Positions 13,033 through 64,000 of a stretch of DNA of 64,000 bases are shown here, in pieces. The notes below the pieces were generated by a model, which was given only the letters and a program-made list of their open reading frames with translations, made no database searches and was not told the origin of the DNA. Position 1 is the first letter of the stretch, and the number at the start of each line of letters is the position of its first letter. Location: contig NC_043014.1 in assembly GCF_006345805.1 (NCBI RefSeq), positions 41,912,001-41,976,000 on the forward strand, read 5' to 3'. The stretch is from Octopus sinensis. Lineage: Eukaryota. Position numbers and translations under genes: made by a program.

Positions 13033-13098
<66 letters not shown>

Positions 13099-13099
13099 T

Positions 13100-13130
<31 letters not shown>

Positions 13131-13342
13131 GATGATGATGATTTCAAGTTTTTCCTACATCGATTCCAGTGCGTAACTGGTACTTATTTAATCGACCCCG
13201 AAAGGATAAAAAGGGCAAAGTCGACGTCCACGGAATTTGAACTCAGAATGTAAAGAACTCAGAAATGCCGCTAAGCAAGTTCTTCGGCGTGCTAAAGATT
13301 CTGCAAGCTCACCGCCTTCGCCGCCTTAATAGAAGAAAACTA

Positions 13343-13727
13343 TATAGGAGCACTCCGTCGGTTGCGACGATGAGGGTCCCAGCTGATACGATCAACGAAA
13401 CAGCTTGCTCGTGATATTAACGTGCAAGTGGCTGAGCACTCCACAGACACGTGTACCCTTAACGTAGTTCTCAGGAGATTCAGCGTGACACAGAGAGTGA
13501 CAAGGCTGGCCCTTTGAAATACAGGTACAAGAGAAACAGGAAGAAAGAGCGAGAGAAAGTTGTGGTGAAAGAGTACAGCAGGGTTCACCACCATCCCCTG
13601 CCGGAGCCTCGTGGAGCTTTTAGGTGTTTTCGCTCAATAAACACTCACAATGCCCGGTCTGGGAATCGAAACCGCGATCTTCCGACCGCGAGTCCGTTGC
13701 CCTAACCACTGGGCCATTGCGCCTCCA
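13343..13727 (-). mobile_element. SINE-C (tRNA-Arg-like head, tail 1)
   Basis: GGAGGCGCAATGGCCCAGTGGTTAGGGCAACGGACTCGCGGTC..GGTTTCGATTCC (A/B boxes, TCG anticodon-like); possibly the octopus OR-type SINEs. Confidence 0.88.
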
Positions 13728-13735
13728 CAACAACA

Positions 13736-13800
<65 letters not shown>

Positions 13801-13801
13801 T

Positions 13802-13832
<31 letters not shown>

Positions 13833-14045
13833 GATGATGATGATTTCAAGTTTTTCCTACATCGATTCCAGTGCGTAACTGGTACTTATTTAATCGACCC
13901 CGAAAGGATAAAAAGGGCAAAGTCGACGTCCACGGAATTTGAACTCAGAATGTAAAGAACTCAGAAATGCCGCTAAGCAAGTTCTTCGGCGTGCTAAAGA
14001 TTCTGCAAGCTCACCGCCTTTCGCCGCCTTAATAGAAGAAAACTA

Positions 14046-14430
14046 TATAGGAGCACTCCGTCGGTTGCGACGATGAGGGTCCCAGCTGATACGATCAACG
14101 AAACAGCTTGCTCGTGATATTAACGTGCAAGTGGCTGAGCACTCCACAGACACGTGTACCCTTAACGTAGTTCTCAGGAGATTCAGCGTGACACAGAGAG
14201 TGACAAGGCTGGCCCTTTGAAATACAGGTACAAGAGAAACAGGAAGAAAGAGCGAGAGAAAGTTGTGGTGAAAGAGTACAGCAGGGTTCACCACCATCCC
14301 CTGCCGGAGCCTCGTGGAGCTTTTAGGTGTTTTCGCTCAATAAACACTCACAATGCCCGGTCTGGGAATCGAAACCGCGATCTTCCGACCGCGAGTCCGT
14401 TGCCCTAACCACTGGGCCATTGCGCCTCCA
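14046..14430 (-). mobile_element. SINE-C duplicate
   Basis: Near-identical to 13343-13727. Confidence 0.88.
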
Positions 14431-14485
14431 CAACAACAATAATAATAATAATATAATAATAATAATGATAATAATAATAATAATA

Positions 14486-14525
<40 letters not shown>

Positions 14526-14588
14526 GATGATGATTTCAAGTTTTTCCTACATCGAATCCAGTGCGTAACTGGTACTTATTTAATCGAC

Positions 14589-14816
14589 AAGGCGGCGTGT
14601 TGGCAGAAACGTTAGCACGTCGGGCGAAATGCTTAGCCGTATTTCGTCTGTGAGTTGTGAGTTCAAATTCCGCCGAGGTCGACTTTGTCTTTCATCCTTT
14701 CGGGTCGATAAATTAAGTACCAGTTACGCACTGGGGTCGATGTAATCGACTTAATACCTATGTCTGTCCTTGTTTGTCCCTTCTATGTTTAGCCCCTTGT
14801 GGGTAATAAAGAAATA
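14589..14816 (+). mobile_element. SINE-A (tail 1) nested in an antisense SINE-A
   Basis: 18-bp TSD GGTACTTAT(T/C)TAATCGAC at 14571-14588 and 14817-14834. Confidence 0.92.
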
Positions 14817-15206
14817 GGTACTTATCTAATCGACCCCGAACGAATGAAAGGCAAAGTCGACCTCCACGGAATTTGAACTCAGAATATTAAAGATCGACGA
14901 AATGCCGCCAAGCAGCAAGTTATCCGGCTTGCTAAAAAGATTCTGCAAGCTCACCGCCTTTCGCCGCCTTAATAGAAGAAAACTAATAAGATGATAAAAG
15001 AAAAAAGCGTGTATTTAGGTGATCGTTATTATTGACATCCGTTTTCCCCATCAGCTTCTCCTCCACTATATAAGAACCTCGAGACCATAACTCGCAATTT
15101 CGTTGAAGAAATTGGCGTAAAATTACTTAACTATCTGCCGCCGCCGTTCCTTCTTCTGTTCGCAGACATCGAGACGTTACAAGAAAATAGAAACTAGTGG
15201 GTGTGA

Positions 15207-22091: not shown

Positions 22092-22191
22092 NNNNNNNNN
22101 NNNNNNNNNNNNNNNNNNNNNNNNNNNNNNNNNNNNNNNNNNNNNNNNNNNNNNNNNNNNNNNNNNNNNNNNNNNNNNNNNNNNNNNNNNN
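22092..22191. other. Assembly gap (100 N)
   Basis: Run of N. Confidence 1.
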
Positions 22192-22821: not shown

Positions 22822-23377
22822 AACACACACGCACATATATATATGTGTGTATGTATATGTGTGTGTGTGTACGTAGGTATGTATGTATATATGCAGATGT
22901 ACATTAGTGCCATCACCCCCGACCCGCACCGGTTACGCCGCGCCTTTTTTTTTTCACTGTTGAACACTTCCCCCGTGACTATAATTACTATATTTTCGTC
23001 GTTCCTCACTCCATTACAACCACCTTTATCATCTCACCCGACAGCTGCTGCTACAGCTGTATGTTCCCCACAACAGTTATTAAAAATCATCGTCGCAATC
23101 ATTATCATCTATATCTATATCAACTATCGCTCGACTTCTTCGAAATAGCGCTGAATGTTTCGCAGCCAGCATCCTACCATCTTAAAACATTAAAAAAAAG
23201 AAATCCGTTGCGTAATGTAGCGCAAGGTATGTATTAAATTACGGATAGTACCGGCTAGAATTCTTTTATTCATAAGCCTCTTTGTTCTATCAAGTTTTGG
23301 ATGCTTACTAGTAAAGGCTATGGATTTTTTCATCACTGGAGTGGAACAGAAATTCAATATTATTTGTGTCTTTGTAA

Positions 23378-23957
23378 AGCGGCGAGCTGGCAGAATCGTT
23401 AGCACGCCGGGCGAAATGCTTACCGGTATTTCGTCTGCCGTTACGTTCTGAGTTCAAATTCCGCCGAGGTCGACTTTGCCTTTCATCCTTTCGGGGTCGA
23501 TAAATTAAGTGCCAGTTACGCACTGGGGTCGATGTAATCGACTTAATACCTATGTATGTCCTTGTTTGTCCCCTCTATTTTAGCCCCTTGTGGGCAGTAA
23601 AGAATAGGTATTTCGTCTATCGTTTGTTTTGAGTTCAAAATTCCGCCGAGGTCGACTTTGCTTTCATTTTCGGGGTCGATAAATTAAAGTACCAGTACGC
23701 ACTGAGGTCGATATAATCGACTTAATACCAGTCTGTCCGTTCTCCTCTATGTTTTTTTGTGTTTAGCCCCTTGTGAGCAGTGAAGAAAATAGGTATTTGT
23801 CTATCTTTATGTCCTGAGTTCAAATTAGCCGAGGTCGACTTTGCCTTTCATCCTTTCGGGGTCGATAAGTTAAGCACTAGTTACGCACTAGGGTCGATGC
23901 AATCGATAGCCCCTTCCCCCAGATTTCAGGCCTTGTGCCTATAGTAGAAAAAATTAT
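23378..23957 (+). mobile_element. SINE-A concatemer: head + unit (tail 1) + unit (tail 1) + unit (tail 2)
   Basis: Three GAGTTCAAA..GAGGTCGACTTTGC cores joined at ..AATAGGTATTT. Confidence 0.9.
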
Positions 23958-24389
23958 TTGTGTCTTTGTGATGTAGAAAGATAAAATGTTGCTATGTATC
24001 ATTGGAGGATTCTTTGAAGTCTCTGTTCTTTGGAGTGAATTTTTCTAGGTTGCATGTTGCTTTCTGTCTGAAATAGAATAAAGAATGTTTAGATGTCAGC
24101 GTGCTAGAAGTGAAAGCAAACAAGCCAACGAAAAATGAGACAGTTACAAATGATCATTGGGACACACGTGAGTTGATAAGATTTAAATCAGAGATATTCC
24201 GTTACTGCTTGTTGCAACTGAATAATCTTACAAGATGCTTTCGGTTGGTTTGACGTAAAAGCCAGGCACATTTTAAAGCCTGACATTATTTTCTTCGAAC
24301 TTTCTTTATCACTTTCTGCAACGGTTTTGTTATCGTTCTTTTATTATTTTCATTCCTTTTTCTTTCCACCTTTGTCTTTCTCGTTCATT

Positions 24390-27869: not shown

Positions 27870-28710
27870 TAATTATCGGTCTCAACTTTTGGCATAATGC
27901 TAGCGACCTCGGCGGAGGCGTTAAGTCGAAAGAATAAAAGCGAAGTCGACATCGGTGGTATTTGAACTCAGAACGTAGAGACGGACGAAATGTCGCTAAA
28001 CATTTTTCCCAGTGTGCTTACGATTCTGCCAGCTCTCAGTCCTAACTCGTTGATAATTATCGGTTTCAAATTTTGTCACAAGGCCAAAAATCCCGGGAGA
28101 GGGACTAAGTCGATTACATCGACCACAGTACTCAGCTGGTACTTATTTGTCAACCCTGAAAGAATGAAAGGTAAAAATCGACCTGGGCGGAATTTGAACT
28201 CAGAACGTGTAAACGGCCGAAATGCCGCTAAGCATTTTGCCCGGCGTACTAACGATTCTTATTTCTTTATTGCCCACAAGGGGCTAAACATAGAGGGGAC
28301 AAACAAGGACAGACAAAGGTATTAAGTCGATTACATCGACCCCAGTGCGTAACTGGTACTTAATTTATCGATCCCGAAGGGATGAAAGGCAAAGTCGACC
28401 TCGGCGGAATTTGAACACAGAACGTAAAGACAGACGAAATATCTCTAAGCATTTCGCACGGCAAGCTAACGATACTTGTTTCTTTATTGCCCACAAGGGG
28501 CTAAACATAGAGGGGACAAACAAGGACAGACAAAGGTATTAAGTCGATTGCATCGACCCCGGTGCGTAACTGATACTTAATTTATCGACCTTGAAAGGAT
28601 GAAAGGCAAAGTCGACCTCGGCGGAATTTGAACTCAGAGCGTTAAAACGGCCGAAATGCCGCTAAGCATTTTGCCCAGTGTGCTTACGACTCTCCCAGCT
28701 CGTGGTCTTA
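27870..28710 (-). mobile_element. SINE-A cluster: 3-unit concatemer (28055-28710) plus older copy
   Basis: Tail-1 ends join directly into head sequence (AGAATCGTTAG / AGTATCGTTAG). Confidence 0.88.
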
Positions 28711-37879: not shown

Positions 37880-38315
37880 TGAGTATTTCGAAGACAGACG
37901 AAATAGAGCTAAGCATTTTGTCCGGCGTGCTAACGTTTCTTATTTCTTTATTGCCGACAGGGGTTAAACAAAGAGGAGAGGGATGAAGTCGATTACATCG
38001 ACCCCAGTGAGTAACAGGTACTCAATTTATCGACTCTTAAAGAATGAAATGCAAAGTCGACCTCAGCGGAATTTGAACTCAGAACGTAACGGCAGACGAA
38101 ATACCTATTTCTTTACTACCCACAAGGGGCTAAATACAGAAAGGACAAACAAGGACAGACAAACGGATTAAGTCAATTATATCGACCCCAGTGCGTAACT
38201 GGTACTTATTTAATCGACCGCGAAAGGATGAAAGGCAAAGTCGACCTCGGCGGAATTTGAACTCAGAACGTAACGGCAGACGAAATACAGCTACACATTT
38301 CGCCTCGCCGCCCTC
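37880..38315 (-). mobile_element. SINE-A concatemer
   Basis: Junctions AAAGAAATAGGTATTTCG and AAAGAAATAAGAAACGTTAG. Confidence 0.88.
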
Positions 38316-46813: not shown

Positions 46814-47220
46814 TTGTTTCTTTACTACCCACAAGGGGCTAAACACAGAGGGAACAAACAAGGACAGACAAACGGATTAGGCCGACTTCATCGACCCCAG
46901 TACGTAACTGGTACTTAATTTATCGACCCCGAAAGGATGAAAGGCAAAGTCGACCTCGGCGGAATTTGAACTCAGAACGTAGCGGCAGACGAAATACCTA
47001 TTTCTTTACTACCCACAAGGGGCTAAACACGGAGAGGACAAACAAGGACCGACAAACGGATTAAGTCGATTACATAGACCCCAGTGCGTAACTGGTACTT
47101 AATTTATCGACCCCGAAAGGATGAAAGGCAAAGTCGACCTAGGCGGAATTTGAACTCAGAACGTAGCGGCAGACGAAATACCGGTATACATTTCGCCCGG
47201 TGTGCTAACGATTCTGCCAA
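46814..47220 (-). mobile_element. SINE-A dimer (head + 2 units)
   Basis: Junction AAAGAAATAGGTATTTCG near 47000. Confidence 0.9.
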
Positions 47221-50653: not shown

Positions 50654-50925
50654 ACGAGCTGGCAGAAACGTTAGCACACCGGGCGAAATGCGTAGCCGTA
50701 TTTCGTCTGCCGCTACGTTCTGAGTTCAAATTCCGCCGAGGTCGACTTTGCCTTTCATCCTTTCGGGGTCGATAAATTAAGTACAAGTTACGCACTGGGG
50801 TCGATATAATCGACTTAATCCATTTGTGTGTCCATGTTTGTCCTCTCTGTGTTTAGCCCCTTGTGGGTAGTAAAGAAATAGGTATTTCGCCTGCCGCTAC
50901 GTTCTGAGTTCGAATTCCGCCGAGG
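50654..50925 (+). mobile_element. SINE-A plus start of a second unit
   Basis: Junction TAAAGAAATAGGTATTTCG at ~50880. Confidence 0.9.
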
Positions 50926-56629: not shown

Positions 56630-56933
56630 GTTAACATGTGACATTATTGACCGAGGTTACCGTGGTCCTTTCCGTGGGCTTTTCTTTCCACGGGTAAACC
56701 TTATCTGCTTTACCCTTTACACTTTACATCATGACATTTCTGTGATACACGATCCCTACTGATCGTTTTCTTTTCTCTCTCTTTTTTTACGATCCTTTTT
56801 GATTAAAAACCTACCACCCTTGTTATTTTTTATTTGTCTTTTTCTTTTTCTTTTCTTTTCTCTCCAAGAAGAAAAGCTCTACTTTGTAATTTGTCCCCTC
56901 TGTGTTCAGCCCTGTGTGGCTAATAAAGAAACA

Positions 56934-61922: not shown

Positions 61923-63080
61923 ATAGGTGCAGGCGTGGCTTATAGGCGCAGGGGTGGTTTATAGGCGCAGCCATGGCTACAGGTGCAGGCGTAGTTGTGT
62001 GGTAAGACGCTTGCTGCCCAACCACATGGCTCCGGGTTCAGTCCCACTGCATGAAATACCTATTTCTTTACTACCCACAAGGAGCTAAACACAGAGAGGA
62101 CAAACAAGGACAGACAAAGGGATTAAGTCGATTATATCGTACCCCAGTGCGTAACTGGTACTTAATTTATCGACCCCGAAAGGATGAAAGGCAAAGTCGA
62201 CCTCGGCGGAATTCGAACTCAGAACATAACGGCAGACGAAATACCTATTTCTTTATTACCCACAAGGGGCTAAACACAGAGAGGACGAACAAGGACAGAC
62301 AAAGGGATTAAGTCGATTATATCGACCCCAGTGCGTAACTGGTACTTAATTTATCGACCCCGAAAGGATGAAAGGCAAAGTCGACTTCGGCGGAATTCGA
62401 ACTCAGAACATAACGGCAGACGAAATACCTATTTCTTTATTACCCACAAGGGGCTAAACACAGAGAGGACAAACAAGGACAGACAGACGGATTAAGTCGA
62501 TTATATCGACCCCAGTGCGTAACTGGTACTTAATTTATCGACCCCGAAAGGATGAAATGCACAGTCGACCTCGGCGGAATTTGAACTCAGAACATAACGG
62601 CAGACGAAATACCTATTTCTTTATTACCCACAAGGGGCTAAACACAGAGAGGACAAACAAGGACAGACAAACAGATTAAGTCGATGATATCGACCCCAGT
62701 GCGTAACTGGTACTTAATTTATCGACCCCGAAAGGATGAAAGGCAAAGTCGACCTCGGCGGAATTTGAACTCAGAACATAACGGCAGACGAAATACCGCA
62801 AAGCATTTCGTCCGGCGTGCTAACGTTTCTGCCAGCTCGCCACTACATGAAATACCTTGGGCAAGTGTCTTCTACTAAAGCCTCGAGCAGACCAAAGCCT
62901 TGAGAGTAGATTTCGTGAGCGGAAACTGAAAGAAGCCCGCCGACACAAGTGACCGTTAGAATAAGCACCAGGTTTTAAAAACCTAAGTACTGGGTCGATA
63001 CATTAGACTAAAATTTCTCCAAAGCGATGCCCTAGTATGGTCACATTCTGATGACTGAAATATATGAAAGATAAAAGATA
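61923..63080 (+). mobile_element. SINE-B with reiterated 5' end, split by a SINE-A array
   Basis: Head to 62060; resumes TTGGGCAAGTGTCTTC at 62857. Confidence 0.88.
62061..62841 (-). mobile_element. SINE-A tetramer (one head + four ~184-bp units)
   Basis: Units start at 62061, 62246, 62430 and 62614; 15-bp TSD ACT(G/A)CATGAAATACC. Confidence 0.93.
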
Positions 63081-63465: not shown

Positions 63466-64000
63466 CTCTGATCAATCTCTCATCAACTTCTTCAAGTATC
63501 ACTTGAAAAGGAAAGTGAGAGTAGAGAGGCAATTTTTGTCTAGTGAATGTTTTAAAAAAAGATGGGTGAATGTAGCAAGGATGGCACGTATGAATGACGA
63601 AGCCACCTTGACTATGATCCTATGAACCGTAACAATTAATTAGTTGCTTATTTGTAGAAAAAAATATAACATGAGACTTCATTGACCGAGGTTACTGTGG
63701 TCATTTCCGTAGGCTTTTCTTTCCACGGGTAAACCTCACCTGTCTTCCCATTTACACTTTATATTGACATTTCTGTGATAACGATTCCTATTGATCGATT
63801 TTTTCGTTTTCGTTTTCTTTTTTCTTTTTATTTTATCTTATTTTATTATATTTTTTTTCTTTGCTTTCCTCTTTCTTTCCATTTACGATCCCTTTTGATC
63901 GGAAACCAACCCATGTTATTTTTTTATCCCCAAAAAGAAAAGCTCTACCTTATAATTTGTCCCATCTGTGTGCATCCCTGTGTGGCTAATAAAGAAACAT
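63466..64000 (+). mobile_element. L1/Tx1-like LINE 3' end (ORF2 C-terminus plus 3' UTR)
   Basis: SLINFFKYHLKRKVRVERQFL...FKKRW resembles the Tx1/L1 ORF2 terminus; stop at 63625; UTR ends AATAAAGAAACAT; second copy at 56630. Confidence 0.6.

Follow-up and report, generated by a model that had tools for sequence, protein, structure and literature searches.

The window, as we call the whole 64,000-nucleotide stretch of Octopus sinensis DNA analysed here, contains a tandem array of a short interspersed element, SINE A, at positions 62046-62856 (Table 1). As the initial annotation had stated, four units stand inside one 15-bp target site duplication (TSD), and the later ones indeed lack the A box. 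The array is a full unit followed by three that begin at SINE position 48. Unit 1 contains a target site, at 62798/62797, and its 3' end is LINE-like. The units are 96-98% alike, with 4-7 differences per pair. All four carry T67 (found in 5 out of 94 solo copies) and T195 (6 out of 94), while units 3 and 4 share two changes, G79 and C173, that are absent from units 1 and 2. Both TSD copies contain GAAATACC, and the sequence at the TSD start, GGTATTTC, is the family's preferred target and is identical to SINE positions 48-55. The internal junction motif is therefore present in the TSD, as had been pointed out, but it reflects the family's ordinary target preference.

The array splits a SINE of a second family, represented by 106 copies in our sample. 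At the insertion site, 106 out of 106 sampled copies of this host family have other bases, and both focal TSD copies carry a variant that exactly recreates SINE positions 48-55; this variant may be a chance mutation or an earlier templated edit. Genome-wide, only one other insertion of the tail in this host was found.

Table 1. Components of the focal array, its flanks and the other SINE insertions in the window
Feature	Position in window	Strand	Remarks
5' part of split second-family tRNA-type SINE	61986-62045	+	start approximate; unrelated to array SINE
Downstream TSD copy	62046-62060	-	14/15 bases identical to upstream copy
Unit 4, SINE positions 48-231	62245-62061	-	1-bp insertion; tail adjoins TSD
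Unit 3, SINE positions 48-231	62429-62246	-	G79 and C173 common to unit 4 only
Unit 2, SINE positions 48-231	62613-62430	-	B box present, no A box
Unit 1, full SINE, positions 4-231	62841-62614	-	A-box-like 62834-62824, B-box-like 62772-62760
Upstream copy of 15-bp TSD	62842-62856	-	starts GGTATTTC on SINE strand
3' part of split second-family SINE	62857-62940	+	end approximate
Full SINE antisense inside another SINE	14574-14841	+	inserted at T|GGTAC; control case; limits approximate
A(1-228)+A(48-229)+sister SINE B(48-end)	23361-23970	+	one ~17-bp B-type TSD; limits approximate
A+A+B	28055-28702	-	joints at SINE positions 20 and 15 (AG.. target class)
Damaged head, deleted second unit	37880-38302	-	joint at 48, then joint at 15 after the deleted unit
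Dimer	46817-47219	-	joint at 48
Full unit plus positions 48-92 (45 bp) of second	50655-50925	+	

SINE A is a tRNA-type element of 231 bp, of which the full copy in the focal array spans 228 bp (positions 4-231). It is short, non-coding, high-copy and TSD-flanked, as is typical of tRNA-derived SINEs. Its head has Pol III box-like motifs (A at 11-21, B at 73-85), judged against the consensus sequences of the A and B boxes. An Rfam search of L162, the stretch that contains the focal array, gave no tRNA match, only sub-threshold microsatellite-like matches. The unit consensus has no TTTT run. Among solo copies, divergence is 2.1% for subfamily ACA, 4.2% for CGT and 4.7% for CCT. A sister element, SINE B, has head and core in common with A and a different tail. 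The A/B pair and the split host SINE may correspond to the octopus OR1/OR2 CORE-SINEs and the OK SINE, which they appear to resemble.

All six loci at which the initial annotation had placed SINE multimers (23378, 28055, 37880, 46814, 50654 and the focal 62061) proved to be such. The proposed junction held for most of them, at position 48, but not for the array at 28055, which joins at SINE positions 15-20. Nor are the multimers uniform: those at 23378 and 28055 end in the sister SINE with its different tail, the second unit at 50654 is only 45 bp long, and at 37880 the head is damaged and an additional joint lies at 15. In the 28055 array, the first head shares alleles with the last unit. A TSD was looked for at 50655-50925 and none was found. 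The antisense control at 14574-14841 has an ordinary 18-bp TSD and no head loss. It lies in a region (13033-14990) where a ~700-bp block, made of a partial sister SINE and (AAT)n, occurs three times, and this antisense insertion splits the third block copy. At 56890-56931 and 63660-64000, as well as at L001, L045, L046, L055 and L069, the sequence (TATC)n follows another element, whose 3' end is related and which may be a microsatellite-targeting relative. A run of 100 N at 22092-22191 marks an assembly gap.

Tail-to-head joints are abundant throughout the genome. One tail 16-mer has 22,478 exact copies, of which 5,621 (25%) are followed by GGTATTTCGTC, and the joint itself was retrieved as 34,598 exact 21-base and 5,621 exact 27-base copies. 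Reversed-pattern controls for the joints gave 0 hits (0-7 over all patterns), so these joints are not due to chance. Nor is the joint an assembly artefact, since three public runs contain it in their contigs and a fourth in one raw read. We sampled 160 stretches of 10 kb, 80 picked by the tail alone, 40 by the tail plus GGTATTTCH and 40 by the exact joint; 159 of them come from one contig (C1), and all were picked on the tail motif and 80 on the joint. Copies away from the chosen centre of each stretch served as an unselected set. In this set, 90 out of 187 tails were joined to a SINE, 71 at position 48, 12 at position 15 and 7 elsewhere. Of the clusters formed by the first 100 joints listed on C1, 65 were single, 11 double and 2 triple, and 1 had seven joints.

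In solo copies, the insertion point is Y|GGTAT and the TSDs measure 9-23 bp. Across 72 TSDs, the consensus before insertion was C/T in 53, G in 47, G in 53, T in 58, A in 56 and T in 42. For each of the first five bases, the two TSD copies agree at 64-70 of the 72 sites, indicating that the motif is in the target DNA. An RNA-templated origin of GGTATTTC in TSDs was rejected in general because the motif is found in each of the two TSD copies. Outer TSDs that begin where the tail ends were detected in 66 out of 87 solos and 49 out of 66 all-A arrays, compared to 6 out of 756 mismatched controls. The SINE itself contains three target sites. Two lie in the head, C|AGAA at 14/15 and C|GGTATTT at 47/48, the latter flanked by the A-box-like and the B-box-like motif; the third, T|GGTACTT, is on the opposite strand of the core. 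All three are used. Antisense self-insertions (344 genome-wide, e.g. at window position 14594) consist of a full SINE with a plain TSD.

The site of the joint changes with the tail variant. Copies with C219/A221 have AG flanks in unique DNA in 21 cases and GG in none, and their joints lie at 15 rather than 48 in a ratio of 11 to 2, whereas T219 variants have 11 AG and 86 GG flanks and 6 joints at 15 vs 214 at 48. The unselected copies show the same switch (9 vs 1 for C219/A221, 0 vs 63 for T219). The junction used by each subfamily thus matches its target in unique DNA. Sister family B1, in which the site mostly reads GGCAT, is the host in only 4 arrays, against 47 solos; B2 hosts are frequent (11 arrays, 17 solos). 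In this comparison B1 is older too, and truncated copies count among the solos. How frequent joints are cannot be explained by the 6-bp motif alone, because sense joints outnumber antisense self-insertions 16-fold (5,621 vs 344) where the motif predicts ~4-fold, and SINE heads hold only 184 of the 1,278 YGGTAT sites in a SINE-enriched sample. The sense excess could be due to homology-aided completion, to RNA-guided priming or to open Pol III chromatin.

The order of units within arrays is polarized. Genome-wide, ACA stands upstream of CGT in 1,117 cases and downstream in 260, the reverse order thus making up about one fifth of ACA/CGT neighbours (260 out of 1,377). In the unbiased set, the younger subfamily was upstream in 24 out of 28 mixed neighbours, and the downstream unit was the more diverged in 20 vs 9 of 31 dimers; these values replace the first polarity and age counts (25 out of 27; 32 vs 13), which were biased by selection on the joint. 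Units within the 61 dimers are about as different as random copies, with a median identity of 0.91 compared to a mean of 0.914 between solos. Heterogeneous units with an age gradient are what the initial annotation had predicted for target-primed self-insertion, and both the dimer identity and the ACA-CGT order agree with it. B units stand at array ends, and one outer B-type TSD is kept in 26 out of 49 such arrays, compared to 23 out of 50 B solos with a TSD, figures that have no mismatch control for either class. Arrays keep the TSD of their last, oldest unit. From the age order and the B-type outer TSDs it therefore follows that the last unit is the resident and that newcomers were added in front.

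A plain insertion at position 48 is expected to leave the host head, a TSD and then a full SINE. Such two-headed forms number 195 genome-wide, compared to 34,598 joints, albeit with patterns of unequal stringency, and in most of the ten loci inspected the TSD occurs twice. Among 132 sampled arrays there are 4 clear cases, three of which end in old or partial units. The two-headed form with an internal TSD is therefore the exception, and a single head is the rule. Several markers bear on the origin of this head: in AB dimers, position 61 is of the host type in 3 out of 17 (5.5 expected by chance), arrays joined at 15 have host alleles in the first head in 3-4 out of 11, and the B allele T19 occurs in 15 out of 49 first heads, vs 13 out of 92 A solos and 43 out of 53 B solos. 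These counts suggest that the single head mostly comes from the newcomer. A fixed top-strand cut or homology resolution near position 62 is unsupported by the same AB dimers and arrays joined at 15. We infer that incoming cDNA aligns in register with the resident head, or else that the short head repeat collapses soon after, the crossover point being variable. The short head repeat is unstable, as tandems of the 65-66 bp head alone show; these head-only tandems, with up to 5 copies, were found in the assembly (G000) at C1:195358951-195359246, C7:15322780-15323080 and C1:194222255. At four further loci (L005:4800, L036 minus 2508, L025 and L045), extra bases lie between TSD and head. They are duplicated SINE positions 1-17 or partial TSD repeats, suggesting template jumps at the 5' junction.

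Longer arrays bear traces of another process. Two or more rare alleles are shared by 4 out of 61 neighbours in dimers, 7 out of 53 in trimers and 26 out of 76 in arrays of four or more units, compared to 7 out of 4,371 pairs of solos, and 24 out of 186 neighbours are 98-100% identical. The array at L109:4237-5330 has the unit order X Y Z X' Y' B, in which a three-unit block is repeated and Z is a hybrid of B and X, and may be seen as an incipient higher-order repeat. A hybrid unit of host and newcomer recurs in L120 and L073, and L159 has at least 13 near-identical units, a number that could be mis-sized in the assembly. The copied blocks would derive from unequal crossing-over or slippage, and later DNA-level duplication, a second step missing from the initial annotation, is likely both in the long arrays and at the focal locus. 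There, stepwise local expansion from one founder unit or a same-lineage dimer is likely, because T67 and T195 occur in all units and G79 and C173 in units 3 and 4 alone; the expansion was possibly helped by the 8-bp identity between the TSD and head positions 48-55. The first focal joint may stem from self-insertion or from duplication between these 8 identical bases.

Long arrays are rare, and most arrays comprise 2-4 units at thousands of dispersed loci. Windows with four joints at exact 184 spacing number 646 genome-wide, some counted from the other strand. The first 100 of these places are spread over contigs C1-C6 and include no large 184-bp satellite block in the assembly, where arrays may be collapsed. 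The proposed route to a nucleosome-length satellite was therefore overstated: the period equals 231 minus 47 (about 217 for position-15 joints). It is set by the target position, and the nucleosome length is probably incidental.

A candidate for the enzymatic partner emerged from L050, a 5'-truncated element with the same tail and a TSD, which led to a 5.4-kb LINE with ORFs of ~460 and 1,126-1,129 aa. This LINE has RVT_1 and zf-RVT domains (on L177), and L1 ORF2p is among the best PDB matches of its ORF2 (E 2.8e-10). PF03372 occurs on most full-length homologues of the protein. A copy at L212 has a 16-bp TSD. Two ORFs, reverse transcriptase, zinc knuckle and a TSD of 10-20 bp are features of L1-group LINEs, the endonuclease being seen on the homologues. 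The last ~45 bases of the SINE tail align with six LINE 3' ends, and a 3' end common to SINE and LINE is characteristic of tRNA-derived SINEs. On this sequence evidence, the L1-group LINE with the same 3' end is a likely partner of the SINE. Full-length 5.4-kb copies are present at L198 and L201-L206 (G000 C5:64.94 Mb, C6:38.65 Mb, C9:8.38 Mb, C15:1.01 Mb, C25:11.95 Mb), some with an intact ORF2 of 1,126-1,129 aa. These copies stand in head-to-tail runs at one fixed site of a repeat, an arrangement seen for one branch of the LINE, with a 16-bp TSD starting GAAATTCGG between copies. Rfam gave no match explaining the target at the LINE target loci, only sub-threshold microsatellite-like ones. 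These site-specific runs would be analogous in behaviour to Tx1 elements (PMC4494074), and no named references are among the LINE homologue matches. Inside the LINE copies at L204 and L211 there are open frames resembling LTR-retrotransposon protease, reverse transcriptase and integrase, a label given by eye.

We consider it probable that the arrays arise by sequential target-primed self-insertion at the head target with in-register head loss, are built youngest-first and are later lengthened at the DNA level. The preferred target sequence sits within the SINE's own head, where a new copy would land by target-primed reverse transcription, likely LINE-driven. The duplicated head would then likely be lost by homology, the new cDNA pairing in register during or soon after integration. 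Newcomers added in front would make arrays grow youngest-first, and unequal DNA exchange would likely lengthen them afterwards. Of the three models that the initial annotation had put forward, the one with target-primed self-insertion and a 5' junction resolved by homology is the best supported, because of the target motif, the subfamily-specific junction, the heterogeneous units, the age gradient and the host TSDs.

Another of those models, in which one SINE RNA closed into a circle between the tail and position 48 is reverse-transcribed by a rolling-circle mechanism or by repeated template jumps, would account for the precise joint and for the near-identical neighbours (24 out of 186). We regard it as very improbable and reject it for most arrays: most units are as dissimilar as copies taken at random and come from different subfamilies, two or more rare alleles are shared in only 4 out of 61 dimers, the junction site follows a DNA target preference, and even the focal array has two changes in units 3 and 4 that units 1 and 2 lack. 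A multimeric source, in which Pol III read-through yields a multimer RNA that is retrotransposed whole, so that arrays are copies of a few masters, appears unlikely as a general origin, though a small contribution is possible. Read-through is expected from a consensus devoid of TTTT, one outer TSD encloses 49 out of 66 all-A arrays, and such a source would account in part for the excess of sense joints. Of 5,253 locus pairs, 21 have rare alleles in common in both units, which exceeds the null mean (12.8) but lies inside the permutation range (maximum 26; swapped control 14), so that the multimer master that had been proposed was not detected. Units of dimers are no more similar at the same position (identity 0.906) than across positions (0.903), structures and subfamily orders are very diverse, and the masters themselves would need self-insertion to arise. 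Partial last units via internal priming on a multimer RNA were also rejected, since inspection by eye of the 27 arrays whose last unit is partial revealed, in most cases, no TSD at the break. A true dimeric SINE, like Alu, would be a fixed composite with position-specific shared variants, which these arrays are not.

Duplication of a monomer purely at the DNA level, by slippage or unequal exchange between the GGTAT.. of the head and that of its own downstream TSD, fits the focal locus, with its 8-bp TSD/head identity and T67 and T195 in all four units. Where TSD and head agree at four or more bases, the units of an array are also more similar (0.933 vs 0.902, p=0.005), but this trend is confounded by subfamily age, and rare-allele sharing is not related to match length (p=0.16). 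Because such duplication cannot yield dimers of two subfamilies or arrays ending in the sister SINE, it is refuted as the general route; with rare alleles shared in only 4 out of 61 dimers, we find it improbable for the arrays at large. An assembly artefact is the least credible reading. Near-identical long arrays such as L159 could be mis-sized, and the focal unit number is that of the assembly. However, the focal units differ at 4-7 sites, the joint recurs in the contigs of three runs and the raw read of a fourth, and age polarity cannot arise from assembly.

Self-insertion might be guided by RNA: a SINE RNA made by Pol III read-through of an array, carrying the tail and then the head from 48, may pair with the nicked strand of family members. 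We put forward this possibility tentatively, and doubt it more than we believe it. It would explain the 16-fold sense excess, of which the motif gives ~4-fold, together with the association of tail variant and target; the same data are explained by successive LINE endonucleases combined with homology-aided completion. If self-reinforcing homing of this kind occurs, arrays breed arrays, a subfamily inherits its target motif from its own 3' flank, and the promoters of older SINEs pass to young subfamilies at tens of thousands of loci.

Target-primed self-insertion would supply a countable first step from dispersed SINE to tandem repeat. The first joint would be written by retrotransposition at a fixed site, and unequal exchange would then have tens of thousands of substrate loci. 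Each insertion would part the host A box from its B box and reuse the upstream flank, a form of competition between SINE subfamilies. With the youngest unit first, the arrays may serve as a built-in clock by which to order subfamilies and trace the switch in LINE target preference, and as an extensive natural resource for studying the resolution of non-LTR 5' junctions in the presence of homology. Where these arrays are handled as single families, both repeat annotation and age landscapes will be skewed.

Parts of this process have parallels elsewhere. In L1/Alu chimeras, new cDNA pairs with an old copy, and R2 5' junctions are formed by homology. The in-register joining of new and old sequence at the octopus 5' junction would be analogous, but those cases are occasional or rDNA-specific, whereas here it is the usual outcome at one fixed site. 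Tandem architecture, sequential insertion and frequent multimers are known, and own-promoter targeting appears to be the part for which we found no account. The freely accessible main texts consulted contained no description of a SINE with a preferred target in its own promoter or of these arrays. The names OR1 and OR2 occur in two papers (PMC4824008, PMC4758252), and SINE tandems are not mentioned in the part examined of a recent annotation of octopus repeats (PMC13282606).

The closest architecture is that of another mollusc, the bivalve Scapharca broughtonii, whose HCD-SINE tandems are described as TSD1-(SINE)n-TSD1 (PMC11481361). There too, one TSD encloses the array, a complete tRNA head comes first and later units are cut at the same head position. 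In contrast, inner HCD-SINE units also lose part of the tail and tandems amount to ~3% of SINEs, whereas octopus tails are complete and 90 out of 187 unselected ones are joined. Unequal recombination between TSDs was suggested for the bivalve, while the motif, the subfamily switch and the age order point to self-insertion in the octopus. The squamate satellites sSat1-3 are likewise SINE-derived, with units shorter than the SINE, a longer terminal unit and a homogeneity that rises with length (PMC10702118). Homogeneity also rises with array length in the octopus; at least four middle monomers per locus, which define an sSat, are found in few arrays, such as L159 and L120, and the focal array has two. 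Unlike sSats, which reach hundreds of units, are subtelomeric and are attributed to unequal recombination (PMC10702118), octopus arrays mostly have 2-4 units and are dispersed, and their first joint would be fixed by the insertion target. This first step is left open by the squamate and bivalve papers.

The crocodilian SINEU-3 and Tx1 LINEs share with our system a target preference and tandems formed by sequential insertion, the SINE there being Tx1-related (PMC4494074). However, SINEU-3 targets another transposon and leaves a TSD between copies, while the octopus SINE targets its own head and leaves neither an internal TSD nor a second head. Rodent B2, B1 and Dip resemble it in their large share of multimers, given as 40-49% with up to eight units (PMC8466645). 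Their units are described as full-length, and integration into the tail of another SINE is one proposed origin, whereas in the octopus the target lies in the promoter and the host loses its A box.
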